DNA from: Patescibacteria group bacterium
Lineage (GTDB): Bacteria; Patescibacteriota; Microgenomatia; Levybacterales; GWA1-39-11
DNA: 64,000 nt
Assembly (NCBI GenBank): GCA_035549315.1
Contig: DASZRC010000027.1
Location: 4,514 to 68,513 of the forward strand
Direction: 5' to 3'
Part shown: positions 3,913 to 62,754 of the stretch, piece by piece
Layout: the number at the start of each line of letters is the position of its first letter
How positions within the stretch are numbered: the first letter of the stretch is position 1
Translations under genes and position numbers: made by a program
Notes under the pieces: model-generated
The model's database searches: none
Seen by the model: the letters and a program-made list of their open reading frames with translations, nothing else
What the model was told of the DNA's origin: nothing

Positions 3913-4239
3913 ATGCCAGTAATAAAATCTGCAATTAAGAAACTAAGAAAAGACGTGAAAAGAGAAAAAAGAAATTCTCAATTTCGCGCAGAACTTGATA
4001 AGGCAATAAATTCTGCAAAGAAATCAAAGACAGAAAAAACCGTTAAAGAGGCCATTTCTGCTGTTGATAAAGCAGTTAAAAAGAACCTTCTTCACCAAAA
4101 CAAAGCCGGAAGAATGAAGTCTTCTTTATCAAAACTTGCAAAGATTGGCGCAACCAAAGCAAAAACCACAACAAAAGAGACAGTAAAAACTGTTAAAAAA
4201 GCAGTTGCTCCCAAAGCCCCTAAGAAATCTGCTAAATAA
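3913..4239 (+). CDS. rpsT: 30S ribosomal protein S20 (bS20)
   Basis: The N-terminus MPVIKSAIKKLRKDVKREKRN is the typical S20 start. The protein is a highly basic 108-aa Lys/Ala-rich protein. Confidence 0.85.
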   Translation: MPVIKSAIKKLRKDVKREKRNSQFRAELDKAINSAKKSKTEKTVKEAISAVDKAVKKNLLHQNKAGRMKSSLSKLAKIGATKAKTTTKETVKTVKKAVAPKAPKKSAK

Positions 4240-7336: not shown

Positions 7337-9085
7337 TTTAAAGACGTAGAAGTTATCTATTTTTTTTACTAAAGATAATTTATTATTTTCATTGAGTTCA
7401 TTAACTATTTCCATACCGTCTTCTTTTTCTTCTCTTTTTGAAAATCCCAAATCATACGTTTTTTTATCTACAATAATGTAATCAAGTTTTAATAGAGCCA
7501 ATTTTTCTATAGACTTTTTATTTGGAAAGTTAATATGTAGGTAGGAAACACTATTCTGCCACGGGGGCGGAGAAAATCCACTTGATCCATTAACCATTGC
7601 CCTGTATTCAACGGTTGAATAAAACTCTCGTTCTATCTCCATCCCATTGCCCCACATATTCCAATTAAAGATTGGCATAATTATTATCTTTGAGTTTGTG
7701 GGAAGGCTATTAAGATATGAATAAATTTTGGGAAAATTTTTTGCTTGGAGCGCAGGATAAAATTGCATTGGGAAATTATATTCTAGAACTATCAATAGAA
7801 TTAATAATCCAAAAAAAGTGTTACCAATATTTTTTACTTTCTTCTTGGAAAAATCTGCCAACATATATGCAATGACCGGGGCAATAAAAATGATAGACAT
7901 CATTTCAAAACGGGAAGAATTTCTAAACCCCTTAAAGCCTGGCGCTAAATAATAAAATGGTAAATAAGGAAGAGGTATGGGCAAAGGATGATGGATAGTA
8001 ACCCTTCCAAAATGGAGAAAAGGACCAAAACTTAGAAGCAATCCAAGAATTGATGCTATCAAAAATATATTTATAATCCCATTATTTTTATTTTTCCTAT
8101 TTTTTGCTACATATATTAAAGCGCAAATTGATAGAACTGTAAAAACAAAACCAAGATACCCCGTTTTTATTTCTGCATTTTCAGGATATTTATTTCTATT
8201 ACTTAAATAAAGTAAGGGCTTTTGTAATCTTGTAGTTTCGTTTGGGTATAAAAGATCTTCCGGTTGTAATGCAAAATGTATAGTATCCCTTATATCTCTT
8301 GTATAACTGAACTCTTTTGAGACTTGATAATAAGGGATTACAAAAGGCAGTATGGCAACAATGGCGCCTAACAGTAAAAGTAAAATTTTTTTATCTTTAA
8401 ATAAAATAAATTTGGCTCCATCAAAAAAATAAACATAAGTAAAATAGACAAAATAAAACAAGATCAAAAAATAACCTGCCATAAAACAGTTATAAATCTG
8501 AATAACTGAGAAAATAACTGCAAGGCTAATAAATTTAAATTGTTTTGACCTAACAAAATTTAGGAAAAAAATAATTGAAAATGGAATCCATTCTAAAGCA
8601 AGCATCTGCAGATGGATTCTCTTGTCTAAAACCGCGGGAGAAAAAACCACCAAAAAACCGGCAATAAGACTTGTTGCAAAATTTTTAGTTAAATAATAGC
8701 TTAAAAGGAAAATTCCAAAAGGTAATAATATTAAAGAAACAATCATAGTAAAATTTATTGCAACAATTGGCTCACGTGTTATTAGGACAATTGGTGCTGC
8801 CATAATGCTTGAAATTAAATGAAGATCCGAATAAGCAAGCGTGTTTGTGTAAGGATAGTAGATATTTGCTTGAAAAAGACTTAGGGGATTTGTTATCAAT
8901 GCATGAATTACCCAGTTCATGATCCAGGAAATAACCAATTCATCACCAAATCCGGTGGTTAGACTTCCAAGATTAACAATTAGAGGATATGTAATATAAA
9001 CTGAGGCAGCAATAAAAATAAAAAACGCCAATATAATTTTTCCTAAATTTGTTTTGAGCATTTTACACTCAGTAGTATATATCAA
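7322..9085 (-). CDS. Polytopic membrane protein, putative GT-C fold glycosyltransferase (PMT/ArnT/YfhO-like)
   Basis: 587 aa with more than 12 predicted TM segments. It lies within the glycosylation cluster. Confidence 0.45.
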   Translation of the reverse strand: MIYTTECKMLKTNLGKIILAFFIFIAASVYITYPLIVNLGSLTTGFGDELVISWIMNWVIHALITNPLSLFQANIYYPYTNTLAYSDLHLISSIMAAPIVLITREPIVAINFTMIVSLILLPFGIFLLSYYLTKNFATSLIAGFLVVFSPAVLDKRIHLQMLALEWIPFSIIFFLNFVRSKQFKFISLAVIFSVIQIYNCFMAGYFLILFYFVYFTYVYFFDGAKFILFKDKKILLLLLGAIVAILPFVIPYYQVSKEFSYTRDIRDTIHFALQPEDLLYPNETTRLQKPLLYLSNRNKYPENAEIKTGYLGFVFTVLSICALIYVAKNRKNKNNGIINIFLIASILGLLLSFGPFLHFGRVTIHHPLPIPLPYLPFYYLAPGFKGFRNSSRFEMMSIIFIAPVIAYMLADFSKKKVKNIGNTFFGLLILLIVLEYNFPMQFYPALQAKNFPKIYSYLNSLPTNSKIIIMPIFNWNMWGNGMEIEREFYSTVEYRAMVNGSSGFSPPPWQNSVSYLHINFPNKKSIEKLALLKLDYIIVDKKTYDLGFSKREEKEDGMEIVNELNENNKLSLVKKIDNFYVFKLKHK

Positions 9086-10492: not shown

Positions 10493-12118
10493 ATGGAAAC
10501 TAAAATTTTAAAAGCAGTTTTTTTTGCATCCTTCTTTTTATTTGTAATTTTTATATTTGTAAATATTAATTGGGGAGAACCTTTCTATTTTCACCCCGAT
10601 GAAAGAAATATTGCATCCTCTATCTCTCAATTAAACTTCCCCAAAAATCTAAATCCTCATTTTTTTGCATACGGGTCCCTACCTATATACTTAGCTTTTG
10701 TGCTTGGGTCTATTCCACAAATAGCAAGCAATGGACTCAATAACTTAATTGTTGATTTTAGTACAGCCATAATATTAACAAGGCTTGCATCTGCATTATT
10801 TGCATTACTCTTAATCTTTTTAATTTTTAAAACCACGGAGTTATTGGCAGGGAAAAGAGAGGCTTTTCTTGCAGGAAGCCTTGCGAGTCTTAGTGTTGCC
10901 TATATTCAATTTGCTAATTTTGGGACATTTGAGATGTGGCTTTCTTTTTTCTCACTGTTAATAATTTATCTACTTCTTTTATTTGTTAAATCCGGTAAGG
11001 ATAATTTTATAGTTTATTCATCTATAGCATTTGGGATCTTATGCTCTTTAAAGCTGTCTTTCATAGGCCTTATCCCAATCTTTATTCTGGCACTATTATT
11101 TGGTTTTAAGCCAAAAGATAAAATAGCTAAGAAAATTTTTATATTTCTTTTATTTATTTTAGTTTCAACAATGTCTTATCTTGTATCATCACCCTTCAAT
11201 CTACTGGATAGCCAAGGATTTATTTCAAGCATGAACTATGAAGGATCGGTTGCATTGGGTACGCTTCCGGTTTTCTATACTGGAACTTTTTTTAATACTA
11301 TACCTATCTTGTATCAATATGAAAAAGTTCTCCCTTTTTTAATAAATCCTTTATTAACCTTAATTTCAATTCCGAGTCTTATCTATCTATCCTATTTATC
11401 AATTACAAAAAGGAATAAGTTGTTGGGATTAGTAGTTTTTTCTTTTCTGATAATTTTTGTTTCCCAATCAGCTCTTTTTGTTAAGTGGACTAGATATGCA
11501 GTCCCCAGTCTCTCTTTCTTATATATATTAATTGCTATATTTATTTTTAAAATTAAAGATATAATTAATGGCAAAATTTTTAATTTAATTATTTTATTTG
11601 TTTTGGGAGTTAGTTTTATATATTCAATATCATATGCAAAGACCGTTAAATTATCCCAAGATACGAGAATAGAAGCTCTTAATTTTTCTACCAAAACAAT
11701 TGATAAGAATTCTAAGATATTAAGTGAGGTATATGATCTTGGAATAGTTCCATTTAATAGTTATTATCCGCATATCACATTGTTTAATTTTTATGATTTG
11801 GACAATGTAGATACAAGTAAAAAAGCGTTATCAGAGGAGCTTAATAACTCAGACTACATTATCATACCAAGCCAAAGAATTATGCAATCAAGAATATTAG
11901 ATAATTCTAACTTTCCAAACGGAAACAACTTCTACAAATCTCTCTTTGCTGATAAACTTAACTATAGGAAGATTTATCAAACTCCTTGTGATATCTTTTG
12001 TAAAATTACATATATGGGAGATCCTGTTTTTAATTTAGAACAAACGGCTAGTGTATTTGATAGACCCACTGTTTTTATTTTTGAAAATAAAAAGATCACA
12101 AATAAAAATAATAAATGA
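10493..12118 (+). CDS. GT-C family membrane glycosyltransferase (PMT/ArnT-like), paralog 1
   Basis: A first-loop motif FHPDERN…FPKNLNPHFFAYGSLPIYL is shared with the next gene. Many TM helices are predicted. Confidence 0.6.
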   Translation: METKILKAVFFASFFLFVIFIFVNINWGEPFYFHPDERNIASSISQLNFPKNLNPHFFAYGSLPIYLAFVLGSIPQIASNGLNNLIVDFSTAIILTRLASALFALLLIFLIFKTTELLAGKREAFLAGSLASLSVAYIQFANFGTFEMWLSFFSLLIIYLLLLFVKSGKDNFIVYSSIAFGILCSLKLSFIGLIPIFILALLFGFKPKDKIAKKIFIFLLFILVSTMSYLVSSPFNLLDSQGFISSMNYEGSVALGTLPVFYTGTFFNTIPILYQYEKVLPFLINPLLTLISIPSLIYLSYLSITKRNKLLGLVVFSFLIIFVSQSALFVKWTRYAVPSLSFLYILIAIFIFKIKDIINGKIFNLIILFVLGVSFIYSISYAKTVKLSQDTRIEALNFSTKTIDKNSKILSEVYDLGIVPFNSYYPHITLFNFYDLDNVDTSKKALSEELNNSDYIIIPSQRIMQSRILDNSNFPNGNNFYKSLFADKLNYRKIYQTPCDIFCKITYMGDPVFNLEQTASVFDRPTVFIFENKKITNKNNK

Positions 12119-13821
12119 ATACAAAAGAAAAAATATTACTTTTAATAATTATTTTATTTGGGTTCTTCCTAAGATTTTACGGAATCAATTGGGATGCAAC
12201 ATGCTGTCAACACCCGGACGAAAGGGCTATTGTAATGTATACAACGCCTTTATCTTTCCCCAAAAATATTGATCAATTTCTTACTCCCCAAAGTCCATTA
12301 AATCCGCATTTCTTTGCATACGGAAACTTCCCTCTTTACCTCTTAAAAGGCGCCTCCTTACTTGCAGGCAATATTGACCCAAGCTTTTTACAGTATGACA
12401 AGATTAATCTGATTGGAAGACTTATCTCTATAATTTCTGACACAGGAACAATAATTATTATTTTCTTGCTAGGAAAAATTCTTTTTAATAAAAAGTCTGG
12501 GTTCTTAGCTGCCTTTGTTTACGCGGTATCGGCTTTACCTATTCAATATTCCCATTTCTTTACATCAGATATTTTACTTACATTTATAATCAGCTTAATT
12601 CTTCTGACTGTAATTAATTTTTATAAGAAACCTAGTTTAAAAAGTGCAATTTTTATAGGTATTTTATTTGGTCTTGCTCTTGCAACTAAAATTAGCGCGA
12701 TACCAATAATTATTTCTATAACCTTGGCGATAACATTGGATTTCTTATTTATTTTTACAAAGTCTCCCCACAAGCCAAAACTCTGGATAAACCACTTACC
12801 CCATGTTGTTAAAAAACTAATCAGTGAATGGGTTTTAATTATGTTGATCGCATTCATAACATTTTCTATCAGCCAACCCTATGCAATTATAGATTCCCAA
12901 GAATTTGTAAACCAAAATATGCTCCAGTCAATGATGACAAAAAACCCATACATATTCCCTTATACGCTTCAGTACGTGGGTAAGATTCCTTATATATATG
13001 AGCTGAAGAATATATTTTTATGGGGACTTGGTCCAATAATCTCTGTGCTCTCCTTTGCGGGCCTAGCCCTTACTTTTTTTAATTTTAAAAAATACAAACA
13101 AGACAAAAAAGCGGAAATAATTCTTATATCAGCATTTCTTATTTCTTATTTTGCGGTTGTTGGAAGTTTTGCAATTGGGTTTATGAGATATTTACTTCCA
13201 ATTTATCCACTTCTGGCAATTTTTGGAGGGTTTTGTTTTTATAAACTGTTTGAATTGTTTGCTTCCTTTATAAAAAATTCCTATGCTATAACATTTTTAA
13301 AATTTGTAGTAATTTTATTGGTTCTTATTTGGCCGCTATCTTTTGTTTCTATATATAGCAGAGTCAATACAAGAATAGACGCAACAAATTGGATCAATAA
13401 AAATATACCCCAAAATAGCACCATAGCAATTGAACACTGGGATGACAGGCTCCCACTTAACTCTCCAAATACTTATAACTTTTCAGAACTTACCATGTAT
13501 GATCAGCCGGACAATGCTCAGAAGTGGCAAGTACTATCCTCTAAATTGAGCGGATCAAATTATCTTATAATCGCTTCCAATAGACTTTACGTCCCTATAC
13601 AAAAACTTAGTAATTGTAATAAATATAAGGTTTGTTATCCCTTAGCAAGCCAATACTACAAAGCACTGTTTAGTGGCAAGCTACCATTCAAACTTGTCTC
13701 CGAGTTTACGTCCTACCCAACCATACCTTTTACAAACATTAAAATACCCGATGACACAGCAGATGAGTCCTTTACAGTTTATGACCACCCCAAAATTTAC
13801 ATCTTTAAAAAAACTCCTTAA
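12115..13821 (+). CDS. GT-C family membrane glycosyltransferase (PMT/ArnT-like), paralog 2
   Basis: The motif QHPDERAIV…FPKNI…NPHFFAYGNFPLYL is homologous to the preceding gene. The two genes overlap by 4 bp. Confidence 0.6.
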   Translation: MNTKEKILLLIIILFGFFLRFYGINWDATCCQHPDERAIVMYTTPLSFPKNIDQFLTPQSPLNPHFFAYGNFPLYLLKGASLLAGNIDPSFLQYDKINLIGRLISIISDTGTIIIIFLLGKILFNKKSGFLAAFVYAVSALPIQYSHFFTSDILLTFIISLILLTVINFYKKPSLKSAIFIGILFGLALATKISAIPIIISITLAITLDFLFIFTKSPHKPKLWINHLPHVVKKLISEWVLIMLIAFITFSISQPYAIIDSQEFVNQNMLQSMMTKNPYIFPYTLQYVGKIPYIYELKNIFLWGLGPIISVLSFAGLALTFFNFKKYKQDKKAEIILISAFLISYFAVVGSFAIGFMRYLLPIYPLLAIFGGFCFYKLFELFASFIKNSYAITFLKFVVILLVLIWPLSFVSIYSRVNTRIDATNWINKNIPQNSTIAIEHWDDRLPLNSPNTYNFSELTMYDQPDNAQKWQVLSSKLSGSNYLIIASNRLYVPIQKLSNCNKYKVCYPLASQYYKALFSGKLPFKLVSEFTSYPTIPFTNIKIPDDTADESFTVYDHPKIYIFKKTP

Positions 13822-15462: not shown

Positions 15463-17574
15463 ATGCCCGACCTATTGGTAGTTCTTCAATGGTGGATACC
15501 CATATTTATTGTAGGAATAGTTTTTCTTCCCACAACCGACTTCTTTTTCTCTGGTTTTTTGGATAGGGGGTATCTGTTTTCCAAAGTACTTGGTCTTGGA
15601 ATTACCACATATATCATATTTGTCTTAAGCTTTATTAGAATCCTTCCCTTTAACATCCTGTCTATAATATTGGTTTTGTGGGTTTGTCTAATGGGCAACT
15701 TTTATTTTTTTAAAAAAACCAAATATAAAATAAAATCTCTTCCAATTAAAGCATTTATCTTGGAGGAAATACTTTTTCTTATCTGCATAATATTTTGGTC
15801 ATATATTAGAGCGCATGAACCAAGTATAAACGGTCTTGAAAAATTTATGGATTTTGGTTTCCTAAATTCAATCCTAAGATCTACCTACATGCCCCCAAAT
15901 GACATGTGGTTTACCCCATTCTCAATTAATTATTATTATTTTGGACATCTAACAACTGCCGTCTTAACTAAGATATCTTTCTTGCCGTCTCTATTAACTT
16001 TCAACCTTATGATTGCAACACTCTTTGCCTTTACTTTCTCTTTATCTTTTTCACTAGTCATGAATTTGGTAAATGGTTTTGCAAAAAAAGGCAAAGCATT
16101 AATAGGTGGACTACTTGCTGCTTTTTTTGTTTCTTTTGGAGGAAACCTGCATACTATTTATTCATTATTTAAACCCTATGACGTAGATAATCCAGTACCA
16201 TTTTGGAAACTTGCTTTCTTGCCCCAAACATTCCCAAATAGTTATTGGTATCCCAACGCAACAAGATTTATCCCTTTTACAATTCATGAATTCCCTATCT
16301 ATTCTTTTGTTGTCTCTGATCTTCATGGACATGTATTGGATTTGATGTATGTGCTTTTATTAATTGCCCTGTCTTATGTGCTTTTTGTAAAAGGGGTAAA
16401 TAAGATAATACTTGGAACAATCGCTCTCTTTTTGGCAATTATGTATATGACAAATGCCTGGGATGGTGCAATCTACATGCTACTTGTTGGTTTTGCCATT
16501 CTTGCAAGAAACTATATTGATATTAAATCACACATAAAAAAAAACAAAACATTTTTCAGTTGTTTAATTCCGGCAATTAAAAAAACTATTGTTCCCTTTT
16601 TATCTACGGCAATTCTTTTTGTGATATTTACCCTTCCTTTTAGTTTAACTTTTAAACCTTTTGCCAGCGGCATTGGAGTATTATGCGCACCCTCCTTTTT
16701 AACAAAGATGGAACACTTGGGACCATTCCTTTTTGAAGCAAACCATTGCCAAAAATCTTCATGGTGGGAATTATTAACTCTCTATGGAGCGTTTTATTTC
16801 TTTGCTCTTTCACTGGTATTTTTTGTCTTTAGAACAAAAAAGAAAATATTAGATACCGACTACTTTGCCTTAATCTTAATAGGACTTTCAACAATTTTAA
16901 TAATAATTCCAGAGTTTATTTACTTAAAAGATATTTATCCGGCCCACTACAGAGCCAACACTATGTTTAAGTTAGTTTATCAATCGTTCATAATGTTATC
17001 TCTTGTTTCCTCCTACGCCATTGTTAGGATAATCACTTCAACCAAAAATATATTGTTTTATCTTGCAAGCGTTTTAATACTTATAGGAATATTTATTTAT
17101 CCATATTTTGCAATTAAGGGCTACTACGGAGATTTAACAAATTACAAAGGTCTAGATGGAACTTCTTATCTAAAAGAGAGATACCCACATGACTATGCTG
17201 CAATAAATTGGATCAATAAAAATATAAAGGGAACTCCTGTTATTGCAGAGGCACAGGGCGATTCATATACAGATTATGGAAGAATATCGTCTAATACCGG
17301 CCTTCCAACAATACTTGGATGGACAGTACACGAATGGCTGTGGCGTGGAACCTATGATGTCCCGGCTCCAAGAATTGAGGAAGTAAGAAGGATTTATGAA
17401 TCAAATAGTCTATCTGAAACAAAACAATTATTGAATAAATATAAAACTCAGTACGTATATATTGGAGATTTGGAAAGAGAAAAATACCCAAGCATTAATG
17501 AAACAAAGTTTAATAATTTAGGCAAAGTTGTTTTCCAAGACGGAAATAGCAGGTTGTACAAACTCAACAACTGA
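15463..17574 (+). CDS. DUF2298 / YYY-domain membrane protein (chlor_Arch_YYY family, predicted membrane glycosyltransferase)
   Basis: Contains the hallmark motif INYYYFGH. The 703-aa polytopic membrane protein has a C-terminal soluble domain. Confidence 0.65.
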   Translation: MPDLLVVLQWWIPIFIVGIVFLPTTDFFFSGFLDRGYLFSKVLGLGITTYIIFVLSFIRILPFNILSIILVLWVCLMGNFYFFKKTKYKIKSLPIKAFILEEILFLICIIFWSYIRAHEPSINGLEKFMDFGFLNSILRSTYMPPNDMWFTPFSINYYYFGHLTTAVLTKISFLPSLLTFNLMIATLFAFTFSLSFSLVMNLVNGFAKKGKALIGGLLAAFFVSFGGNLHTIYSLFKPYDVDNPVPFWKLAFLPQTFPNSYWYPNATRFIPFTIHEFPIYSFVVSDLHGHVLDLMYVLLLIALSYVLFVKGVNKIILGTIALFLAIMYMTNAWDGAIYMLLVGFAILARNYIDIKSHIKKNKTFFSCLIPAIKKTIVPFLSTAILFVIFTLPFSLTFKPFASGIGVLCAPSFLTKMEHLGPFLFEANHCQKSSWWELLTLYGAFYFFALSLVFFVFRTKKKILDTDYFALILIGLSTILIIIPEFIYLKDIYPAHYRANTMFKLVYQSFIMLSLVSSYAIVRIITSTKNILFYLASVLILIGIFIYPYFAIKGYYGDLTNYKGLDGTSYLKERYPHDYAAINWINKNIKGTPVIAEAQGDSYTDYGRISSNTGLPTILGWTVHEWLWRGTYDVPAPRIEEVRRIYESNSLSETKQLLNKYKTQYVYIGDLEREKYPSINETKFNNLGKVVFQDGNSRLYKLNN

Positions 17575-17596
17575 CCTGTCTGCCGACAGGCAACTA
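17575..17596. repeat. Palindromic element GACCTGTCTGCCGACAGGCAAC, copy 3 of the GACCTGYCTGCCGRCAGGCA family. It sits immediately after the stop codon of the YYY protein.
   Basis: Seen in the sequence. The two substitutions relative to the other copies are mirror-symmetric (C>T and G>A), which preserves the hairpin. Confidence 0.8.
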
Positions 17597-17606
17597 GCTT
17601 CTTTAT

Positions 17607-17634
17607 TTGACTTTGAAAATTCTATTTATATAAT
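17607..17634 (+). promoter_or_regulatory. Promoter candidate: TTGACT, 16-bp spacer, TATAAT. The ATG at 17641 is 7 nt downstream, so the transcript would be near-leaderless.
   Basis: Seen in the sequence. Confidence 0.4.
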
Positions 17635-17640
17635 TGCAGG

Positions 17641-18117
17641 ATGCCTAGAGAGATAAAAATTAGCGACCCATATCTTGCTGGTGAGTACTTGAAAACCGGA
17701 ACAAAATTAAATATTAGAGATAAACGTGGTTATCCCTTAATGAAAGTAGAACTTGGACCAGCTCTGGATGCGGAACATTATTGCCATACTTGTGGAGAAA
17801 CAGGCGAAAAGATAATTGCAGATTCGGAAACAAGTAATTCCCTTGCTCGTTCTAAGCTGGAAGTTGCCAATCTAGAGTTCACATCAGTTCCTACCTGTCC
17901 ACTCGCGCGATATAAAGATCTAGATAAAGAATCTGTTCAATCCATACAGTCAGACTGTATAAATAGAAGACCAGCAAGCAAAAAACAGGTAGAGCTAATT
18001 GAGGAAACTCAAATATATATAAATCATGCCCTATTAGCTACAGATCTGGGATATGCGGAGATTATTAGCTTAGACACAGAACGAACAATCGAGGCTTTAG
18101 AAAAAATAACTATTTAG
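17641..18117 (+). CDS. Hypothetical protein (158 aa) with Cys/His residues, possibly metal-binding
   Basis: ORF with a good promoter upstream. No recognizable family. Confidence 0.45.
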   Translation: MPREIKISDPYLAGEYLKTGTKLNIRDKRGYPLMKVELGPALDAEHYCHTCGETGEKIIADSETSNSLARSKLEVANLEFTSVPTCPLARYKDLDKESVQSIQSDCINRRPASKKQVELIEETQIYINHALLATDLGYAEIISLDTERTIEALEKITI

Positions 18118-19255
18118 ACTTTTGTTTTGTGGTAATTGAGGGAGTGGGCGTTGGATCAATGCCCAAACCTTTGGCCATGATCTCACATACATGTCCGCCG
18201 GCAACACAATTTACGTAAGACTGAATTTCAGAAAAGTCACCGTCTCCAACTCTAGGAATTAAATTGTATTGAAAACCTTTTGTCTCAGTTGGAATATCTT
18301 CTTTTAAAAGACCAAACCTACCCTCACTTTGATCGCCAAAATCTATAACAAAACTATCTATCTTTGCCTTCTGCATTTTCTGGGCCAAATTTATAAAGTC
18401 GTCATATTCATTTGGGGTCACATCTGTATCAATATTATCTTTTAAAATATTGAATATCCCAATAACCTTAACCGGATTAAGAATTATTCCAAGAGATAAT
18501 ACTTTTGATTTTATTGCAGATATTACTTCCTGCTGACGCCTTGATCTTGCAAAATCACTTCCCTCACCATTTATTCCATGCCTTGACCTTGAGAATTGAA
18601 GCGCAGTCTCCCCATCCATATGTTGAACTCCCTGATCCACATGAAGGTGCTTATAGCGACATTCAAAATATTTCCATTGATCAAGTTCGGCAGGCCCCGT
18701 AGCAATAAAGTCTTTTACCTCATCTTCCGGATGACCACAAAGGTCTGTTTCTTTTCCTTCTATTGGATAGTTGTAGTCATCCAAAGTATGGGCAACATTA
18801 ACATCTATACCACCAAGATAATCAACCAACTTTACAAAACCGGAGAAATCTATAACAACTACATAATCAATTTGTTTACCTGTAATTTTTTTTACTACGC
18901 TTTTAACCAAAAGCTTATTTTTATCATTTTTATCCAAACCTAATTGATAGGTTTTGTTTATCTTCCCATTAACATCCGACACCCATAAATCGCGGGGAAT
19001 AGAAACCAAATTTACAGTATTTTTTGTAGGGTTAATCATTGCAACAATGATTGTATCTGTAAGGTTTGGCCCATCATGGTTACCTCCGCCAATTCCCAAT
19101 ATTAAAATATTTATGTTTCCGGTTTTCTGTTCTTTTTTAAGAACTATTTCTTTTTTAATGTGGAATTTGTATATAAAGAATCCCCCAAAGATCAATGCTA
19201 TTAAACCAATAGCAAGTACCACCAATTTCCAATTTTGGGAACTTTTTTTTAGCAT
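18110..19255 (-). CDS. LytR-CpsA-Psr (LCP) family cell-envelope polymer transferase
   Basis: An N-terminal TM is followed by an LCP domain with conserved motifs (…IPRDLWV…, …GGIDV…, …FSRSRH…). Confidence 0.8.
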   Translation of the reverse strand: MLKKSSQNWKLVVLAIGLIALIFGGFFIYKFHIKKEIVLKKEQKTGNINILILGIGGGNHDGPNLTDTIIVAMINPTKNTVNLVSIPRDLWVSDVNGKINKTYQLGLDKNDKNKLLVKSVVKKITGKQIDYVVVIDFSGFVKLVDYLGGIDVNVAHTLDDYNYPIEGKETDLCGHPEDEVKDFIATGPAELDQWKYFECRYKHLHVDQGVQHMDGETALQFSRSRHGINGEGSDFARSRRQQEVISAIKSKVLSLGIILNPVKVIGIFNILKDNIDTDVTPNEYDDFINLAQKMQKAKIDSFVIDFGDQSEGRFGLLKEDIPTETKGFQYNLIPRVGDGDFSEIQSYVNCVAGGHVCEIMAKGLGIDPTPTPSITTKQKSK

Positions 19256-19932
19256 CTTTCAATAAGAGAGAAAAAGTTTGAAGCTTCAAGACTTGCGCCG
19301 CCCACTAAAACACCTGAGATATCCGGGATGTCTGTAAACTTCTTAATATTATCCGCAGTAACACTTCCACCATACAAAACTTTTTCAACGTTCTTATTTT
19401 TTTCCTTTATTGATTTTGCCACTTTTTCTGCATTTTCCGGCGACTCAGGATTTCCTGTACCAATTGCGCTTATTGGCTCATACGCTACTATCTTAACAGT
19501 CTCCGGAATTGGGGTAGAATCACCCTGAACGCAAAAAACTATATTAAGACCACTTGCGTCAGCATTAACAACTTTTGTCTCTAGAACCTCATCCGTATCT
19601 CCAAAGTTCTGTCTTCTTTCCGAATGTCCAATTATTGTATAACTTGCCATCTTTTTAATAATTTCAGCAGGAATTTCACCCGTATATGCTCCTGCAACAA
19701 ACCTTGAAACGTCTTGGGCTCCAATCTTGAACTCAAGAGCGTTAGCCACAACGTATGCATTTAAAAGCTGTAAAAGAGTATATGGGGGACAGATTAAAAT
19801 TTGCTTATTAGTAAGATCCAGCTTTGCCTCGAATATTTTTCTATTAAATTCCTCTAGCCAGAGGCGTGCCTCATCTTCCGTTTTGTGCGCTTTCCAGTTA
19901 GCAACGAGCAGTAGATCTTTCATATGATACAA
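19249..19932 (-). CDS. tpiA: Triosephosphate isomerase
   Basis: Carries the TIM motifs ANWKAH, IIGHSERR, AYEPISAIGTG, YGGSV and GVLVGGASL. Confidence 0.9.
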   Translation of the reverse strand: MYHMKDLLLVANWKAHKTEDEARLWLEEFNRKIFEAKLDLTNKQILICPPYTLLQLLNAYVVANALEFKIGAQDVSRFVAGAYTGEIPAEIIKKMASYTIIGHSERRQNFGDTDEVLETKVVNADASGLNIVFCVQGDSTPIPETVKIVAYEPISAIGTGNPESPENAEKVAKSIKEKNKNVEKVLYGGSVTADNIKKFTDIPDISGVLVGGASLEASNFFSLIERC

Positions 19933-20232
19933 TTGAAGAGATTTAGCCTCTTAAATTCAATTTAAACTATTATAACAGTATATGCAAAACATTTTAAAGC
20001 ATCATAACATTAGATTCTTAGAATTTTGCCCGATTTTTGAAATGCATGCGAATCAATTTGCCACTTCGAAGTTGAGTGCATGAGAAAGGAGTGAGTTTGT
20101 CAGGGGGATTCCTCACAAACTTGTTGAGGAGGGGGTGAAATCACCCGACTAAACGAACGAGCTTAGAGAGCACGAAACAAGACCGTGGCTAGAGCTTTTG
20201 ATACTTTTCGCGGTAGAAAAGTATAAAAAATA

Positions 20233-22116
20233 ATGGAAAACATTCTCAATAAACTAAACGCGGAACAAAAAGTTGCAGTTGTAGCAACAGAAGGACCAAT
20301 TATTGTTCTGGCAGGAGCAGGATCCGGGAAAACTCGTGTACTTATTAATCGCGCCCTTTATTTGGTAGTGGAGAAAAAAGTAAGACCGGAGAATATCTTA
20401 CTAGTTACATTTACAAATAAAGCTGCCGGAGAAATGCTTGAGAGGATTACCAAAACATTTAGCGAGTTCAAAATATCCGGCCAACCAATTGTTGGAACGT
20501 TTCATTCAATATGTTCAAAAATATTAAGACGGGATGGAAGAAGTATAAATATCCCAATAGGTTTCCAAATATTTGACGACCAAGACCAATTAGAAACTGT
20601 AAAGGAAGCTTTTTCTTTTCTAGATATTAGCATTAAAGACATAAAACCAAGGTCAGTACTTGCAACTATATCCCAGGCAAAAAACCAAATGATTGACCCT
20701 GCCTCTTATGAATCTTTTGCGCGGGGATATTTTCAGGAAACAGTTGCAAAAATTTACCCCATATATCAAGGCTTATTGCGGGACCATGAGGCCCTAGACT
20801 TTGATGACCTTATGCTAAAAACTATTGAGTTGTTTAAAAATGACCCAATTGTTTTGTCCCGCTACCAAGACCAATTCCAATATATTATGGTAGATGAGTA
20901 TCAGGATACAAATGAGGCCCAATTCCAACTTACAAAACTTCTTGCTGGAAAGGAAAGAAATGTTTGCATAGTTGGAGATTTCTCCCAAAGTATATATTCT
21001 TTCCGTGGGGCGGATTTTAGGAACTTGGAAAAATTTAAAAGGGATTTCCCGGAAAGTAAAACTTTCCCTCTTTCCCAAAACTATCGCTCTACCCAAAATA
21101 TTTTGAATGCTGCCTACTCTGTGATTTCCAATAATACAATGCACCCTGTTTTATCACTCTGGACACAAAACCATGAGGGAGAAGAAATAAAAATATTTCC
21201 GGCAAATAGCGAACACAATGAGGCAGAATTTATAATTGAAGAAATTACCCTTGCCCAATCACGTGACCCCCGCGTAAAGTTTTCTGATTTTGCCGTACTC
21301 TATAGAACAAATGCGCAATCAAGGGCCCTGGAAGAAACTTTTTTGCATAACTCTATTCCATATATATTAGTAGGTGGCACAAGATTTTATGAGAGACGGG
21401 AAGTAAAAGATGTTCTTTCATACATTGCCTACCTTGCAAATCCCAAAAACAAGGTTGCTCTAAAAAGAATTACAAAGCTTGGGAAAAGAAGATTAGAAAA
21501 ATTCCAAGAATTTGTAAAAGAATTCCAGGAAAATGATTATTTATCCAAGAAAACTACAATAGAAGTATTAGATGACGTGTTGAACAAATCTACTTACCTA
21601 AGTCTTTACAATGAAGAAGATCCGGAAGACAAGGCAAGACTTGAGAATATAAAAGAACTGCGCTCTGTGGCAATTGAATTTCCAAATCTTAATTTATTTT
21701 TGGAAAACGTAGCTCTTGTTGAACAGCAATATTCCTCTAATGGAGCGATGCCAGACCTGCCTGCCGGCAGGCAAGGTGGGCCAGTTGGGGAAAATCCGGA
21801 CGCTGTAACTCTTATGACAATGCACGCAGCAAAAGGACTAGAGTTTGGGACAGTGTTTATTGTTGGAATGGAAGAAGGATTATTCCCCCACTCCCAATCA
21901 ACTTTTGATACAGGAGAACTGGAAGAAGAAAGAAGACTTTGCTATGTTGGAATAACAAGGGCCCGCCACAAACTTTATCTTACTTTTGCAAAAAGAAGAT
22001 TATATTTTGGACAACTTGTAAGTAATTCTATTTCCAGATTTATTTTTGAACTTCCGGAAGAAGTTTTGAAAGCAAATTATATAGAAAGAATAGCCAATGA
22101 ACCGGAGTGGATGTGA
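20233..22116 (+). CDS. uvrD: ATP-dependent DNA helicase, UvrD/PcrA (SF1) family
   Basis: Motif I is VLAGAGSGKT, motif II is VDEYQDTN, motif V is TLMTMHAAKGLEF and motif VI is YVGITRAR. A 7-codon palindromic-element insertion (DLPAGRQ) lies just upstream of motif V. Confidence 0.85.
   Translation: MENILNKLNAEQKVAVVATEGPIIVLAGAGSGKTRVLINRALYLVVEKKVRPENILLVTFTNKAAGEMLERITKTFSEFKISGQPIVGTFHSICSKILRRDGRSINIPIGFQIFDDQDQLETVKEAFSFLDISIKDIKPRSVLATISQAKNQMIDPASYESFARGYFQETVAKIYPIYQGLLRDHEALDFDDLMLKTIELFKNDPIVLSRYQDQFQYIMVDEYQDTNEAQFQLTKLLAGKERNVCIVGDFSQSIYSFRGADFRNLEKFKRDFPESKTFPLSQNYRSTQNILNAAYSVISNNTMHPVLSLWTQNHEGEEIKIFPANSEHNEAEFIIEEITLAQSRDPRVKFSDFAVLYRTNAQSRALEETFLHNSIPYILVGGTRFYERREVKDVLSYIAYLANPKNKVALKRITKLGKRRLEKFQEFVKEFQENDYLSKKTTIEVLDDVLNKSTYLSLYNEEDPEDKARLENIKELRSVAIEFPNLNLFLENVALVEQQYSSNGAMPDLPAGRQGGPVGENPDAVTLMTMHAAKGLEFGTVFIVGMEEGLFPHSQSTFDTGELEEERRLCYVGITRARHKLYLTFAKRRLYFGQLVSNSISRFIFELPEEVLKANYIERIANEPEWM
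21754..21775. repeat. Palindromic element GACCTGCCTGCCGGCAGGCAAG, copy 1, inserted in-frame in the helicase CDS where it encodes DLPAGRQ
   Basis: A 19/20 perfect palindrome, read directly from the sequence. Confidence 0.85.
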
Positions 22117-22158
22117 TAATATCATTAAAACATTAACAGATTAAAAATTAACGAACTA

Positions 22159-22183
22159 CGAATCCGCCAGCTGGCGGACGAAC
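22159..22183. repeat. 25-bp element CGAATCCGCCAGCTGGCGGACGAAC with a 16-bp perfect palindrome core (TCCGCCAGCTGGCGGA, containing CAGCTG). It is flanked by CGAACTAC direct repeats.
   Basis: Identical in reverse orientation at 60154..60178. Confidence 0.8.
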
Positions 22184-22240
22184 TACAATTAGTATTTGGT
22201 ATATGGTAAATAGTGTATAGTAAATGTTAAACAATGTATT

Positions 22241-23203
22241 ATGCCTGACGATATTGAAACTCACCTTCCGAGTCAAAACGAAGTAGAAAAAAACCTAGCA
22301 GAACTCAAGGCAAGAGCTCAAGCAGCTTTTCCTGATGCAGCTGATATATCACTTGAAGAAAGTTATAGAGATATAGAATCCGATCCAGATAACTTTTTTG
22401 CGACAGGAAAATCAAATAATGAAACTATAAGGGCTTATTATGATTATCAAACAGATCTAGAAGATGGAGATATTATTTTTAAAGAATCTTCTGCATCTAT
22501 TATCAATTTCACTGATGGATATATTAATTTTTACAAAATTGGGAGGAAAAAAGGAAATGATAGCCTCAACGATACGGAACATGCCGAAGATGAATGCCTA
22601 ACTATTAAATCGGATAAAGAAGGTAAAGCAATATCCTACATCTTTAATAACCCAAAAGGAAATGACTACCGAATAAATGAATTGAGGACTATGAGAGAAA
22701 CGATAGATAATCCAGACGGAGCAGATATTGAAGGGCCTATAACAAATATCACCATTAGCTATGGACCTGATGGTAACCTATCACACTTTTGGCCACCGCA
22801 GTTTGAAGATTTTTTTGTGAATTCAACTAAAGGTAATTCCACCGAAGAAGTAGATCAATATCTTAAAGATCCCAATCAAGATAGTATTAGTTTTAGAATT
22901 ATAGACACACACCTTGACATAACATACAAGAAAACCGATGACGAACATCTTGGAGTTTTTAACGTAATTATTAAAGACCAAGAAGGAAAGCCTAGATACA
23001 GACTACAGATGTTTAGAAAAATAGATCCAGAAGAAATTGCTGACGCTCTGGACTTTGATCAATTACTCGCTCATCCCGACCAGCCGGCGAATGGGATAGT
23101 AGATGAAAATGGTGAGAATAGAAGATCTTGGGGAGACCTTGAATGGAGACGAGCTAGCTTTCCTGATCTTACCGGCATACACATAACTCCTCTTGATATA
23201 TAA
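22241..23203 (+). CDS. Hypothetical acidic protein (320 aa)
   Basis: ORF only. No recognizable motifs. Confidence 0.45.
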   Translation: MPDDIETHLPSQNEVEKNLAELKARAQAAFPDAADISLEESYRDIESDPDNFFATGKSNNETIRAYYDYQTDLEDGDIIFKESSASIINFTDGYINFYKIGRKKGNDSLNDTEHAEDECLTIKSDKEGKAISYIFNNPKGNDYRINELRTMRETIDNPDGADIEGPITNITISYGPDGNLSHFWPPQFEDFFVNSTKGNSTEEVDQYLKDPNQDSISFRIIDTHLDITYKKTDDEHLGVFNVIIKDQEGKPRYRLQMFRKIDPEEIADALDFDQLLAHPDQPANGIVDENGENRRSWGDLEWRRASFPDLTGIHITPLDI

Positions 23204-24290
23204 TCTAATAATGGATCAGTTCATTGATATCACAGAGGAAAATAGAGATGATTACAACAAAGTTGTTGATCATCCACTCCAATCCTATGAGTGGGGAGAA
23301 TTTCGCAAAAAAACCGGAGTAAAAGTAATAAGACGCGGACTTGTCAGAGACCTGCCTGCCGGCAGGCAGGTTGTCGATGGATTTACACTAACCCTTCATA
23401 AGGTTCCAAAAACAAAATACTACATTGGCTATCTTCCAAAAGGAAACAAACCCACCCCCCAAATCTTGGAAGAAATAAAAAGAATAGGAATAGAAAATAA
23501 ATGCATATTTATTCAACTCGAACCAAATTTGGTCAATGGTCAATGGTCAATGGTCAAAGGTTTTAATTTAAAACGCGCAGCACATCCACTGTTTACCAAA
23601 TACACTTTTGTTCTTAACATGCAACATACCGAAGAGGAATTGTTAAAAAATATGCATCCAAAAACTCGCTACAACATAAGGGTTGCAGAAAAACACGGGG
23701 TCAAAGTAAAAGAAGATAATTCAGAATCTGCTTTTAATAACTACCTTAAACTTATGACAGAAACAACAGACAGACAAGGATTCTATGCGCACACCCCTTC
23801 TTATCATAAACACTTATGGGAGATTTTATCAAAAAACGAAAAACGAACCACGAACCACAATTCCTTAACATATCATCTTATTAATGCAACCTATAAGCCC
23901 ACGACTAACGACGAACGAACTACAAATAACGATGCAGTTTTAACATCTTGGGTTTTGTTTGTTTTCCATGACCATCTCTATTATCCGTATGGCGCTTCAA
24001 GCCGCCTGTACCGCGAAACAATGTCTAATAACTTAGTTGCATGGGAAGCAATAAAGTTTGGTAAAAAATTGGGATTAAAAGATTTTGATATGTGGGGAGC
24101 GCTAGGTCCGGAGCCAGATAAGAATGATCCTTGGTATGGATTCCATAGATTCAAACAAGGGTATGGTGCAGAACTTGTGGAATTTGTAGGAAGCTACGAC
24201 TTAGTTATAAAACCCGCTTCTTATGAAGTTTATAAAGTTATGGATAAGCTGCGCTGGGCCGCATTAAGAGTCAAAAAAATGATTGGGTAA
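23193..24290 (+). CDS. FemAB/FemX-family peptidoglycan-bridge (aminoacyl-tRNA-dependent) peptidyltransferase
   Basis: The N-terminal motif HPLQSYEWGEF is a FemX/MurM-type motif, and the C-terminal region reads …HDHLYYPYGASS…GYGAELVEF. The CDS contains a palindromic-element insertion (DLPAGRQ), a (GGTCAAT)4 tandem repeat and a low-complexity insertion. Confidence 0.65.
   Translation: MIYNLIMDQFIDITEENRDDYNKVVDHPLQSYEWGEFRKKTGVKVIRRGLVRDLPAGRQVVDGFTLTLHKVPKTKYYIGYLPKGNKPTPQILEEIKRIGIENKCIFIQLEPNLVNGQWSMVKGFNLKRAAHPLFTKYTFVLNMQHTEEELLKNMHPKTRYNIRVAEKHGVKVKEDNSESAFNNYLKLMTETTDRQGFYAHTPSYHKHLWEILSKNEKRTTNHNSLTYHLINATYKPTTNDERTTNNDAVLTSWVLFVFHDHLYYPYGASSRLYRETMSNNLVAWEAIKFGKKLGLKDFDMWGALGPEPDKNDPWYGFHRFKQGYGAELVEFVGSYDLVIKPASYEVYKVMDKLRWAALRVKKMIG
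23348..23369. repeat. Palindromic element GACCTGCCTGCCGGCAGGCAGG, copy 2 (a perfect 20-bp palindrome), inserted in-frame in the FemAB-like CDS where it encodes DLPAGRQ
   Basis: Seen in the sequence. Confidence 0.85.
23531..23558. repeat. Heptanucleotide tandem repeat (GGTCAAT)x3 plus GGTCAAA, lying inside the FemAB-like CDS where it encodes NGQWSMVKG
   Basis: Seen in the sequence. The unit length is not a multiple of 3. Confidence 0.85.
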
Positions 24291-48330: not shown

Positions 48331-48810
48331 CTATCTATCCTTTATCCGATAGACAAATTTTAAACCTGAATAGATATCATTTATTGCTGCAACTTTTACA
48401 TCTACCAAGCCGTTTTTAAGACCTATTCCCCGAATTATATTTTCATCAAGATCTGTAACAACGCCAGATGTTTTTTTGGGCCAAGATACCCAAAGAGCAC
48501 CATCTTTTTTGAGATGAACAAAAGCTTGTCTAAATAGAGTCTCTAGATCCTCTTTTGACTTAGAAAATATGTGTATGTAGTCAAAATTTCCATCCAATTT
48601 GTTTTTAGCCACTATATAATAAGGAAGCTCACCCAGGGATTCTTTAAAATCGCTAGGCTCGTTGATAAATATAACTCGGGAATTTTCTTTTATCCCAAGC
48701 TTTTTATAAAGTGGAGTACTTGAATAGCCAGTCATAAGCCTGTTCTTAGATATTAGATCTTGGATCTTAGATTTATATAAAAGATATAAGCAATTGTAGC
48801 ATAATTGCAT
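48331..48810 (-). CDS. Hypothetical protein. The true start may be the internal Met at ~48735.
   Basis: ORF only. Confidence 0.4.
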   Translation of the reverse strand: MQLCYNCLYLLYKSKIQDLISKNRLMTGYSSTPLYKKLGIKENSRVIFINEPSDFKESLGELPYYIVAKNKLDGNFDYIHIFSKSKEDLETLFRQAFVHLKKDGALWVSWPKKTSGVVTDLDENIIRGIGLKNGLVDVKVAAINDIYSGLKFVYRIKDR

Positions 48811-52119: not shown

Positions 52120-52184
52120 TATGTAATTATACGATAGCCCCTTTGCAAACCACTAGCGGACTTGTCCGCCGTAGCTCGCTTCGG

Positions 52185-52270
52185 CGAGCAAAGGCGGAGG
52201 AGACAGGATTCGAACCTGCGAGAGTCTTACGACTCAGGGATTTAGCAAACCCCCTCAGTGGGCCACTGTG
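52185..52270 (-). tRNA. tRNA-Ser (anticodon GCU)
   Basis: Manual fold: acceptor GGAGGAG/CTCCTCC, anticodon loop TTGCTAA, long variable arm and T-loop GGTTCGAATCC. Two GC hairpins follow its 3' end. Confidence 0.8.
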
Positions 52271-57182: not shown

Positions 57183-57238
57183 GCTAGCTGATAAGCTTAG
57201 GGCTAGCAATTTTTATTTCTTAATTCTTAATTTTTATT

Positions 57239-57270: not shown

Positions 57271-57367
57271 GCTTTAAACATTGAAAATTAACAATTGATT
57301 AGAAATTAGTAATTAAAAATTGGAAATTAAATGGAAATCCATTTGAAATGGTATAATTGTAAGAAGT

Positions 57368-60153: not shown

Positions 60154-60178
60154 GTTCGTCCGCCAGCTGGCGGATTCG
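60154..60178. repeat. Second copy, in reverse orientation, of the element CGAATCCGCCAGCTGGCGGACGAAC
   Basis: The reverse complement is identical to 22159..22183. Confidence 0.8.
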
Positions 60179-60244
60179 TTATATCATTCATCATTAATCT
60201 ACAATCAATAATCATTAATTTATTATTGTTGGTATAATAGGTTC

Positions 60245-61948: not shown

Positions 61949-61988
61949 AAAATGATTAATGATTTACGAATAACGAATAATGAATGCA

Positions 61989-62016
61989 TCTTTAATCTTT
62001 AATCTTTAATCTTTAA
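61989..62016. repeat. Heptanucleotide tandem repeat (TCTTTAA)x4 in the divergent intergenic region between comF and the SOD gene
   Basis: Seen in the sequence. Confidence 0.85.
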
Positions 62017-62090
62017 TCTTTAATACTGTTATCATATATCTATTAACTCTTTCTTACAAAATTATAATGGTGTAGAATTAGGATAATAAT

Positions 62091-62696: not shown

Positions 62697-62754
62697 TTAG
62701 TTCTTAGATCTTGGTTCTTAGATATTTAGGTTACCTCCTTGGTATAATCCACTT

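Follow-up and report, generated by a model that had tools for sequence, protein, structure and literature searches.

Why does one short palindrome occur three times in a small part of a bacterial genome, once between genes and twice within unrelated protein genes? We addressed this question in a 64,000-nt stretch of contig DASZRC010000027.1 from a Patescibacteria group bacterium (the window). The element, which we named PAL, is a 20-nt, GC-rich, hairpin-forming sequence with the exact core CCTGCCTGCCGGCAGGCAGG and the consensus CCTG(C/T)C-T(G/A)CC-G(G/A)CAGG-CAGG. PAL is a discrete, precisely inserted hairpin element that recurs across phyla, and its coding copies are translated. We consider it somewhat favoured (probability about 0.6) that the three window copies are orphans of a mobile 20-nt hairpin unit, whose system resembles the repetitive extragenic palindromes (REP) and their transposase RAYT but has a GIY-YIG nuclease as partner. 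The copies and their host genes are listed below.

17575..17594, plus strand: PAL copy 1, the T/A allele, with the hairpin CCTGTC-TGCC-GACAGG at 17575-17590 and a degenerate tail, CAAC.
21756..21776, plus strand: PAL copy 2, CCTGCCTGCCGGCAGGCAAGG, the 20-nt core with one G>A change and one extra base, inside UvrD.
23351..23370, plus strand: PAL copy 3, the perfect core, inside FemAB.
20233..22116, plus strand: UvrD/PcrA helicase gene, host of copy 2; insertions recur in its variable linker ahead of motif V.
23193..24290, plus strand: FemAB-family gene, host of copy 3; probable start at ATG 23211.

The motif GACCTGYCTGCCGRCAGGCA occurs exactly three times in the window, at 17573-17592, 21754-21773 and 23349-23368. 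For the 20-nt core with up to three mismatches, 100 dinucleotide shuffles of the window gave 0.00 expected matches, and the 10-nt centre of the palindrome was observed 3 times vs. 0.48 expected. A sequence-only reading of this DNA had claimed that the palindrome is very unlikely by chance, which the shuffles bear out. Motif search and translation also confirmed its claim of three copies, two of them coding in the same frame as DLPAGRQ (in UvrD and FemAB). It gave the right sites, but its coordinates need small corrections. The copy 1 motif begins at 17573 rather than 17575, and its first two bases, GA, belong to the TGA stop codon that ends the DUF2298 ('YYY') open reading frame (ORF; 15463-17574). 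Copy 1 is intergenic, directly 3' of this stop and 46 nt 5' of the ATG of a further ORF, ORF158. Its DNA is predicted to fold with -5.6 kcal/mol in the register of a 6-bp stem and a 4-nt loop. The two substitutions of copy 1 preserve the hairpin, as had been proposed, but only in this register are they paired; they do not occupy mirror positions in the symmetric 20-bp register. Copy 2 had been taken for a perfect palindrome; however, it reads ...GGCAAG, and the perfect one is copy 3, the core of which sits in a 22-nt perfect palindrome (23350-23371). The palindrome contains type IIS sites (ACCTGC).

We then compared the window with related sequences, in which L numbers denote retrieved loci and P numbers orthologous proteins. 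The contig of the closest relative available, L156 (UvrD identity 81%), is syntenic with the window (DUF2298-LytR-TIM-UvrD-hypothetical-FemAB). At the three window sites, no palindrome was present in L156 or in L158. In UvrD, the window has 21 extra bases (+7 aa) after ATGCCAGA; copy 2 is a 21-nt in-frame insertion translated as (D)LPAGRQG, and removal of CCTGCCTGCCGGCAGGCAAGG leaves MPD and a six-residue linker, as in L156 and L158. The FemAB insertion was judged by DNA and protein comparison with L156, L158, L160 and L161. The net gain was only 12 nt (4 aa), about 8-9 native bases having been overwritten by the last bases of the palindrome, and LVRD-RKMV-DGF of L161 corresponds to LVRD-LPAGRQVV-DGF in the window. 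The proposed 7-aa insertion is therefore true for UvrD, whereas FemAB gained only 4 aa. Loss of just the 20 nt would put either gene out of frame; translation of the coding copies follows from this, and an intron-like removal of PAL at the RNA level was rejected.

Orthologue surveys placed the insertions in a wider context. The short linker prevails in the 120 UvrD orthologues surveyed; LPAGR(Q) is present in four, namely the window, P0046, P0070 and P0009. The locus of P0046 (L159) carries a perfect 24-nt GACCTG...CAGGTC at the same UvrD nucleotide as the window. The UvrD copy in the locus of P0070 (L160) is decayed, with three mismatches, and lies 9 nt farther upstream, and L161 has different GC palindromes in that same UvrD loop. 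The FemAB orthologues have the baseline length in 112 of 120 cases; P0126 (L390) and P0141 (L391) have their own FemAB inserts with DNA different from that of the window, and the L391 insert is apparently one PAL copy nested within another. These counts uphold the earlier view of DLPAGRQ as a lineage-specific insertion, and LPAGRQ was found only in orthologues that carry a DNA element of their own, which speaks against an ancestral heptapeptide. The coding copies sit in permissive surface loops of UvrD and FemAB, and these loops have been hit independently in other Microgenomates. Signs of decay are the three mismatches of the L160 coding copy and the single change in copy 2; copy 3 is still perfect.

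To define the inserted unit, we used filled/empty pairs, each consisting of a PAL-bearing partial tRNA copy and an intact tRNA gene nearby. In 32 pairs, the 14 + 14 bases flanking PAL directly adjoin each other in the intact copy (offset zero), indicating an exact 20-nt addition with neither target duplication nor deletion. Target-site duplication was accordingly rejected as a candidate, and the apparent direct repeats turned out to be pre-existing 7-nt tandem arrays. The flanks of different PAL copies are unrelated, and only position -1 is biased (A in about 50%). Because the bias is confined to the base adjacent to the core, the unit is 20 nt long, or 22 nt in about half of the copies. About 30 of 99 PAL copies from low-GC loci lie inside ORFs of at least 150 aa, in all three frames. 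PAL has a stop codon in no frame (the ORF readings are LPAGRQ, PACRQAG and CLPAGR), so that copies landing in frame in permissive loops are translated. The intergenic copies fall into tandem, divergent and convergent spacers at 34/9/8 vs. 291/68/55 for background spacers, a split that gives no sign of terminator-like or REP-like placement. Taken together, the empty sister sites, the 32 precise pairs and the ORF-borne copies agree with the earlier suggestion of a miniature mobile palindrome that tolerates in-frame insertion.

The PAL sequence varies in a way that keeps the hairpin. At the two variable positions, the genome sample comprised C/G 101, T/A 21, T/G 2 and C/A 2 (Fisher p = 1.4e-19, with the reservation that related copies do not represent independent events). 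In a second, independent set of 82 copies, gathered without reference to the palindrome, 43 had the consensus, 14 had T-A and one had A-T at that pair, and variants of the 4-nt loop (TACC) also occurred. The variant changes keep the 6-bp hairpin and break the symmetric 20-bp duplex palindrome. Compensatory change confined to the hairpin favours recognition or propagation of a single-strand hairpin over a symmetric duplex site, and we think that PAL is probably recognized in this form rather than by a dimeric duplex-binding protein. Of the two kinds of selection put forward in the sequence-only reading, the covariation supports secondary structure; the dimeric protein-binding site is at odds with the broken duplex symmetry.

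The distribution of PAL is wide. A scan of one genome per species gave at least 120 loci with the exact 20-mer, and these belong to more than 10 phyla. The carriers include many groups of the candidate phyla radiation (CPR), Bacteroidota with cultured isolates and complete genomes, Planctomycetota, Nitrospirota, Ignavibacteria, Omnitrophota, low-GC Gammaproteobacteria known as metagenome-assembled genomes (MAGs), Firmicutes and others. Galbibacter orientalis, Maribacter halichondriae and Niabella insulamsoli are among the cultured or complete-genome carriers. The unanchored 20-nt core was present in 35 viral contigs, and two scrambled palindromes of the same half-site composition in 0 and 0. 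Curated phage and plasmid collections contained no exact PAL, only partial matches at chance level. Rfam models gave no match over any window copy, whether the gathering threshold was applied or E values up to 10 were allowed, and a limited literature search found no description of the PAL sequence or its peptides.

We asked whether PAL could be a chance match or an assembly, adapter or chimera artefact of MAGs. The carriers are mostly MAGs, a perfect palindrome is what some library linkers look like, and the curated phage and plasmid collections lack an exact copy. This explanation is nevertheless effectively refuted: the shuffles predict zero matches, the scrambled controls gave 0 against 35 viral contigs, cultured isolates and complete genomes carry PAL, the coding copies are in frame and differ by point mutations, the alleles covary, and the same loop is occupied in independent assemblies from different projects.

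Two viral contigs were observed in their own right. In IMGVR_UViG_3300025106_000007 (L154), a 21-nt variant of PAL, CATGCCTACCGGCAGGCAGGC, is present head to tail in at least nine copies at 3920-4130, showing that PAL can also form tandem arrays. IMGVR_UViG_3300035537_000177 (L152) holds at 440-900 a complete cassette of a tRNA fragment with PAL, a GIY-YIG gene and a tRNA gene. A viral cassette of this type is a possible vehicle for transfer between hosts.

The same data bear on the proposal that PAL is a selected cis-element, that is, a parS-like or regulator site, an uptake sequence, a terminator or an RNA-processing hairpin. PAL is a stable GC hairpin in an AT-rich genome, its structure is kept by compensatory change, and copy 1 and both copies of a second palindrome family (B, described below) come just after stop codons. 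Sequence identity across phyla is also known for parS. However, the same sites are empty in the closest relative and the copies inside genes decay. In contrast to a parS site, which keeps its position near the origin and has symmetric half-sites bound as a duplex by a dimeric protein, the element is missing from a syntenic genome, and its common T/A allele keeps the hairpin while breaking the duplex symmetry that a dimeric binder needs. Unlike an intrinsic terminator, PAL has no T-tract and no 3'-end bias; a terminator scan called none of the three copies, two of which are inside genes, and the intergenic copies prefer the 3' ends of genes no more than divergent promoter regions. Uptake sequences (DUS/USS) are 9-12-mers specific to a species or family, with hundreds to thousands of copies per genome, whereas PAL has only three copies in about 78 kb of contig (the window and 14 kb more), which is too few for this role, and it is found in too many phyla. 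No Rfam family matches. We regard a selected cis-element as very improbable. Two roles suggested from the sequence are thus not supported, the DNA uptake sequence because the 20-mer occurs in more than 10 phyla and in viral contigs with only a few copies per 64-78 kb, and the parS/centromere or regulator site because presence is polymorphic, coding copies decay and the intergenic spread equals the background. Most likely, the window copies are neutral passengers without a cellular function; copy 1 may serve as an incidental hairpin at the 3' end of the DUF2298 gene.

If PAL moves, which enzyme moves it? In about 10 of the first loci, a small ORF encoding a GIY-YIG domain was located 20-70 nt away from PAL. 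We built a profile from ten aligned PAL-adjacent GIY-YIG proteins and collected metagenome loci by protein similarity alone. Among the best 80 nuclease loci, PAL (called with up to 2 substitutions in a 16-mer) was within 250 nt of the ORF in 59 (74%) and on both sides in at least 12; several further loci had close PAL variants. The nuclease is a stand-alone GIY-YIG protein of about 80 aa that consists of the catalytic domain only (Pfam PF01541, E = 5e-17), and sequence-specific recognition by so small a protein is doubtful. Among solved structures, those of the UPF0213 proteins 1ZG2 and 1YWL come closest to it, followed by SLX1, ahead of I-TevI. SLX1 is a structure-specific nuclease. An Slx1-like clade of stand-alone bacterial GIY-YIG proteins has been described (PMC1564403).

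Nearly all of the nuclease ORFs adjoin a tRNA gene on the same strand, mostly Leu and also Arg, Lys, Asn, Thr, Gly and Phe. Two layouts were seen: a 5' tRNA fragment with PAL, the nuclease and the intact tRNA, or the intact tRNA, the nuclease and a 3' tRNA fragment with PAL. L035 contains tandem re-invaded cassettes. PAL occupies at least 10 different positions within the tRNA fragments, all in loops or at loop/stem junctions and mostly after A. The fragment runs on for 10-25 nt beyond PAL before the nuclease ORF begins, and PAL was therefore rejected as the insertion point of the nuclease cassette. As a side observation, the PAL-bearing tRNA fragments often contain a second, different GC hairpin in addition (L046, L094, L048 and L035). 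The new arm of the one in L048, TCCGCC, is complementary in reverse to the native GGCGGA next to it, a pattern that resembles the signature of a template switch.

Given this association, the GIY-YIG nuclease is our candidate for the mobilizing enzyme. As a structure-specific nuclease, it would recognize the single-stranded PAL hairpin, as in REP/RAYT, and would either move PAL or help it to insert into exposed single-stranded loops, mostly close to the nuclease gene and now and then at other places. A bolder version, which we advance tentatively, is that PAL and the Slx1-like GIY-YIG proteins form an unrecognized bacterial mobile class, in which a hydrolytic, structure-specific nuclease takes the place of an HUH or DDE transposase in moving the hairpin and the nuclease gene is tRNA-adjacent and partly carried between phyla by phages. 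The targets of such a class would be tRNA-gene cloverleaves, other hairpins and permissive coding loops.

Several points weigh against the orphan-copy reading and its GIY-YIG partner. First, tblastn and profile searches of the window, 14 kb of further contig and the sister loci did not find the family's GIY-YIG gene, so any partner in the source genome is putative. In addition, the profile was built from PAL-adjacent genes, so that across the wider family the true association may be lower than 74%. The presence of PAL in tRNA fragments could be due simply to a lack of other neutral DNA there, or to a protective effect of PAL on the cassette, instead of its being moved by the nuclease. GIY-YIG enzymes hydrolyse DNA and form no covalent intermediates; cut-and-paste would need host ligation, and we know of no GIY-YIG pathway of this kind. 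The flank logos showed no target motif beyond the 5' purine. Neither coding copy is a clean 20-nt insertion (+21 nt in UvrD; +12 nt in FemAB, where about 8 nt were overwritten), and such untidy junctions fit break repair as well as they fit transposition. Finally, the clustering of all three copies within 5.8 kb of the about 78 kb (p about 0.016) is unexplained.

Break repair is the basis of the strongest competitor, in which PAL is the repair scar or immunizing module of tRNA-targeting GIY-YIG homing cassettes rather than a transposing unit. The nuclease would cut at tRNA-like or other sites, and repair of the break would either copy a short tract from a donor with PAL or insert filler DNA. 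PAL would then disrupt the redundant tRNA fragment and prevent its re-cleavage or the deletion of the nuclease gene between direct repeats, and the solo copies in UvrD and FemAB would be off-target repair products. In favour of this explanation, PAL was always seen in the tRNA copy that is non-functional, the intact copy being free of it. The explanation also accommodates the re-invaded cassettes of L035, the other GC hairpins that interrupt the same fragments (L046, L094, L048 and L035), the untidy coding junctions, and the fact that all three window copies follow GA, like the commonest tRNA site, GGYAGA^C. However, the flank logos have no extended similarity to that site, and off-target cutting at tRNA-like sites was rejected on this ground. 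The 32 exact 20-nt additions in a neutral context, at 10 or more positions, indicate a defined unit and not variable tracts. The origin of the first PAL copy of a genome is left unexplained, and no nuclease gene is near the window copies. On balance we consider the repair explanation unlikely, though less so than a cis-element, and retain the mobile hairpin unit as the preferred reading.

We next asked how a mobile PAL unit compares with known systems. Tiny mobile palindromes are a known kind (REP and its doublet REPIN, Rickettsia palindromic elements (RPE), small dispersed repeats (SDR) and mitochondrial GC clusters), and PAL fails the defining tests of each. As judged from a limited literature search, the combination of a 20-nt unit, duplication-free insertion, a cross-phylum consensus and a GIY-YIG partner beside tRNA genes appears to be new.

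PAL resembles the REP/REPIN-RAYT systems in that these are short GC-rich hairpins (REP being extragenic, 20-40 nt), have many solo copies, are recognized by structure, and have copies flanking a single nuclease or transposase gene. Yet the PAL-flanked gene encodes a GIY-YIG protein (UPF0213/Slx1-like), whereas RAYT is a Y1 HUH enzyme akin to IS200/IS605, and no HUH gene was seen in the GIY-YIG/tRNA cassettes inspected. PAL lacks the conserved GTAG or CGTC tag of REP (PMC3733652), its flank logos showing only a purine at -1, and it is a single 20-nt hairpin and not a doublet like REPIN. REP are extragenic and mainly in convergent or tandem spacers, while about 30% of PAL copies are in ORFs and the intergenic ones are placed as the background. 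Some families of REP hairpins are common to several species (PMC3733652, PMC3116915); PAL is identical in more than 10 phyla. MITEs derived from DDE transposons have terminal inverted repeats, a fixed-length duplication and 50-500 bp, unlike the 20-nt PAL with no duplication in 32 pairs. Single-strand peel-and-paste transposition of the IS200/IS605 type depends on a hairpin and occurs 3' of a fixed tetra- or pentanucleotide without duplication. For PAL, the absence of duplication and the hairpin covariation agree with this; no fixed 4-5-nt target and no HUH enzyme were found.

RPE are palindromic repeats of 100-150 bp in one genus, Rickettsia, and are regarded as 'selfish DNA in protein-coding genes'; we know of no enzyme for them. 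Like PAL, they are palindromic, lie in frame in functional protein genes and are translated as an extra peptide in permissive regions. PAL differs from RPE in its length of 20 nt, its cross-phylum occurrence and its candidate partner gene. RPE are also mentioned in PMC3733652. The SDR of Nostoc/Anabaena are reportedly 21-27 nt long and accompanied by heptameric STRR arrays; they share with PAL the very small size, the mobility, the hairpin potential and the company of 7-nt tandem arrays, and like PAL they are not known to have a transposase of their own. The SDR are lineage-specific in cyanobacteria, whereas PAL has one cross-phylum consensus and a defined gene association.

The mobile GC clusters of yeast mitochondria (PMC4478555) and the double-hairpin elements of Allomyces mitochondria are likewise GC-rich palindromic mini-elements of AT-rich genomes that insert into genes and spacers. 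As with PAL, these mitochondrial elements border free-standing GIY-YIG endonuclease ORFs with partial duplications of genes; in contrast to PAL, they are organellar, 30-50+ nt long and species-specific, and GC-cluster insertion is associated with short target repeats, which the 32 PAL pairs lack. The cassettes also recall T4 SegB (PMC2330249), a GIY-YIG gene among tRNA genes that spreads with flanking tRNA sequence. The partial tRNA duplications and the tandem re-invasion suggest that homing-type insertion fits the nuclease cassettes. SegB-type enzymes have a DNA-binding domain and no palindrome, while the nuclease here is a bare catalytic domain of about 80 aa flanked by PAL.

These observations have several consequences. 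As few as 20 nt can act as a discrete unit of insertion and be identical in bacteria that are only very distantly related, which calls for conserved and transferable machinery. The candidates are the very common but functionally unassigned stand-alone GIY-YIG (UPF0213/Slx1-like) proteins beside tRNA genes, and the function of this family becomes testable. PAL explains odd GC-rich peptide inserts (LPAGRQ, PACRQAG) in MAG proteins, which can mislead alignments, phylogenies and gene calling, and the recurrent loop insertions mark positions of UvrD and FemAB that tolerate insertion. If the enzyme is confirmed, precise hairpin insertion without duplication would be of possible interest as a tool. 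If a new mobile class is indeed present, PAL would be among the smallest transposable units known to us and a recurrent source of peptide insertions in CPR and Bacteroidota proteins.

The neighbourhood of the window copies has further features. One of them adjoins copy 1.

17607..18117, plus strand: orphan ORF158 block, with the ORF at 17641-18117 and the best promoter-like sequence of the region, TTGACT-16-TATAAT, at 17607-17634.

The whole block is missing from the sister genomes L156 and L158, where the copy 1 site is empty as well, and copy 1 forms its upstream edge. ORF158 (158 aa) had no homologue except itself among 5.8 billion proteins and no Pfam or PHROG match, and its structure model was unusable (pLDDT 32). 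On these grounds, the idea that ORF158 is the missing nuclease was rejected. The block has the look of a gene cassette that was inserted recently. The interior of UvrD (21901-21995) gave a sub-threshold match to Rfam n00280 (56 bits vs. a gathering score of 65), described as 'Clostridioides difficile sRNA included into helicase gene'. Conservation of the helicase coding sequence, and not an RNA, is the most likely reason for this match.

PAL is not the only hairpin here. A scan of the window for GC-rich hairpins found 21 vs. about 1 expected. A second palindrome family, B (TCCGCCAGCTGGCGGA), has two window copies (22163-22178 and 60159-60174) that share 26 bases.

22158..22183, plus strand: family B copy 1, ACGAA-TCCGCCAGCTGGCGGA-CGAAC, intergenic, 47 nt after the UvrD stop and flanked by CGAACTA heptamers.
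60154..60179, minus strand: family B copy 2, the same 26 bases in opposite orientation, intergenic, 47 nt after the stop of the ORF at 58265-60112.

Copy 2 of family B adjoins CGAAnnn and ATCATTA heptamer arrays. The L156 spacer homologous to the site at 22158-22183 has a TAGGnnn heptamer array and no palindrome. Family B was rejected as a second cross-phylum element, since its 16-mer had 55 viral-contig matches vs. 91 for the scrambled control, and our claim for it is limited to the two 26-nt window copies and a few coding examples. The latter have the form TCCGCC-N4-GGCGGA (L051:5102, L010:3037) and encode PPAGG or PPTGG inside ParB and a UvrD-like helicase. A family C, TCCCGATAGCTATCGGGA, was seen in five Bacteroidota loci (L020, L050, L058, L096 and L111), and a similar sequence, ATCCCGATTGAATCGGGAT, lies just outside the window (L308:1496). 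Near PAL in unrelated phyla, we also noted the hairpin repeats GTCATTGCGAG...GAAGCAATC (L036, L038, L051, L098 and L124) and GTCATCCTGAGC...GAAGGATC (L056, L082, L098 and L130), in both of which the outer arms are conserved and the GC-rich cores vary. PAL may thus belong to a wider set of micro-repeats that cross phyla.

Among the tandem repeats of this genome, those with a period of 7 nt are the most frequent (12 of 50 rows of the TRF output); they fill intergenic spacers.

13134-13151, 23530-23561, 48746-48787, 57208-57236, 57298-57329, 60183-60219, 61951-62024 and 62697-62723: 7-nt arrays in the window.
7811-7844 and 11877-11922: 7-nt arrays in L156.

The array at 23530-23561 lies in the FemAB gene and consists of 4.6 units of TGGTCAA. 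In the sister genome, TAGGnnn arrays occupy exactly those spacers that hold palindromes in the window. The window arrays resemble the cyanobacterial STRR heptamers. Just 3' of a tRNA-Ser-GCT gene, which was called by ARAGORN and is absent at the Rfam gathering score, two adjacent GC hairpins, GCTCGCCGAAGCGAGC and GCGGACAAGTCCGC, lie at 52120-52192 on the minus strand. Their sequence is unrelated to PAL, and they are possibly a terminator or a processing signal.

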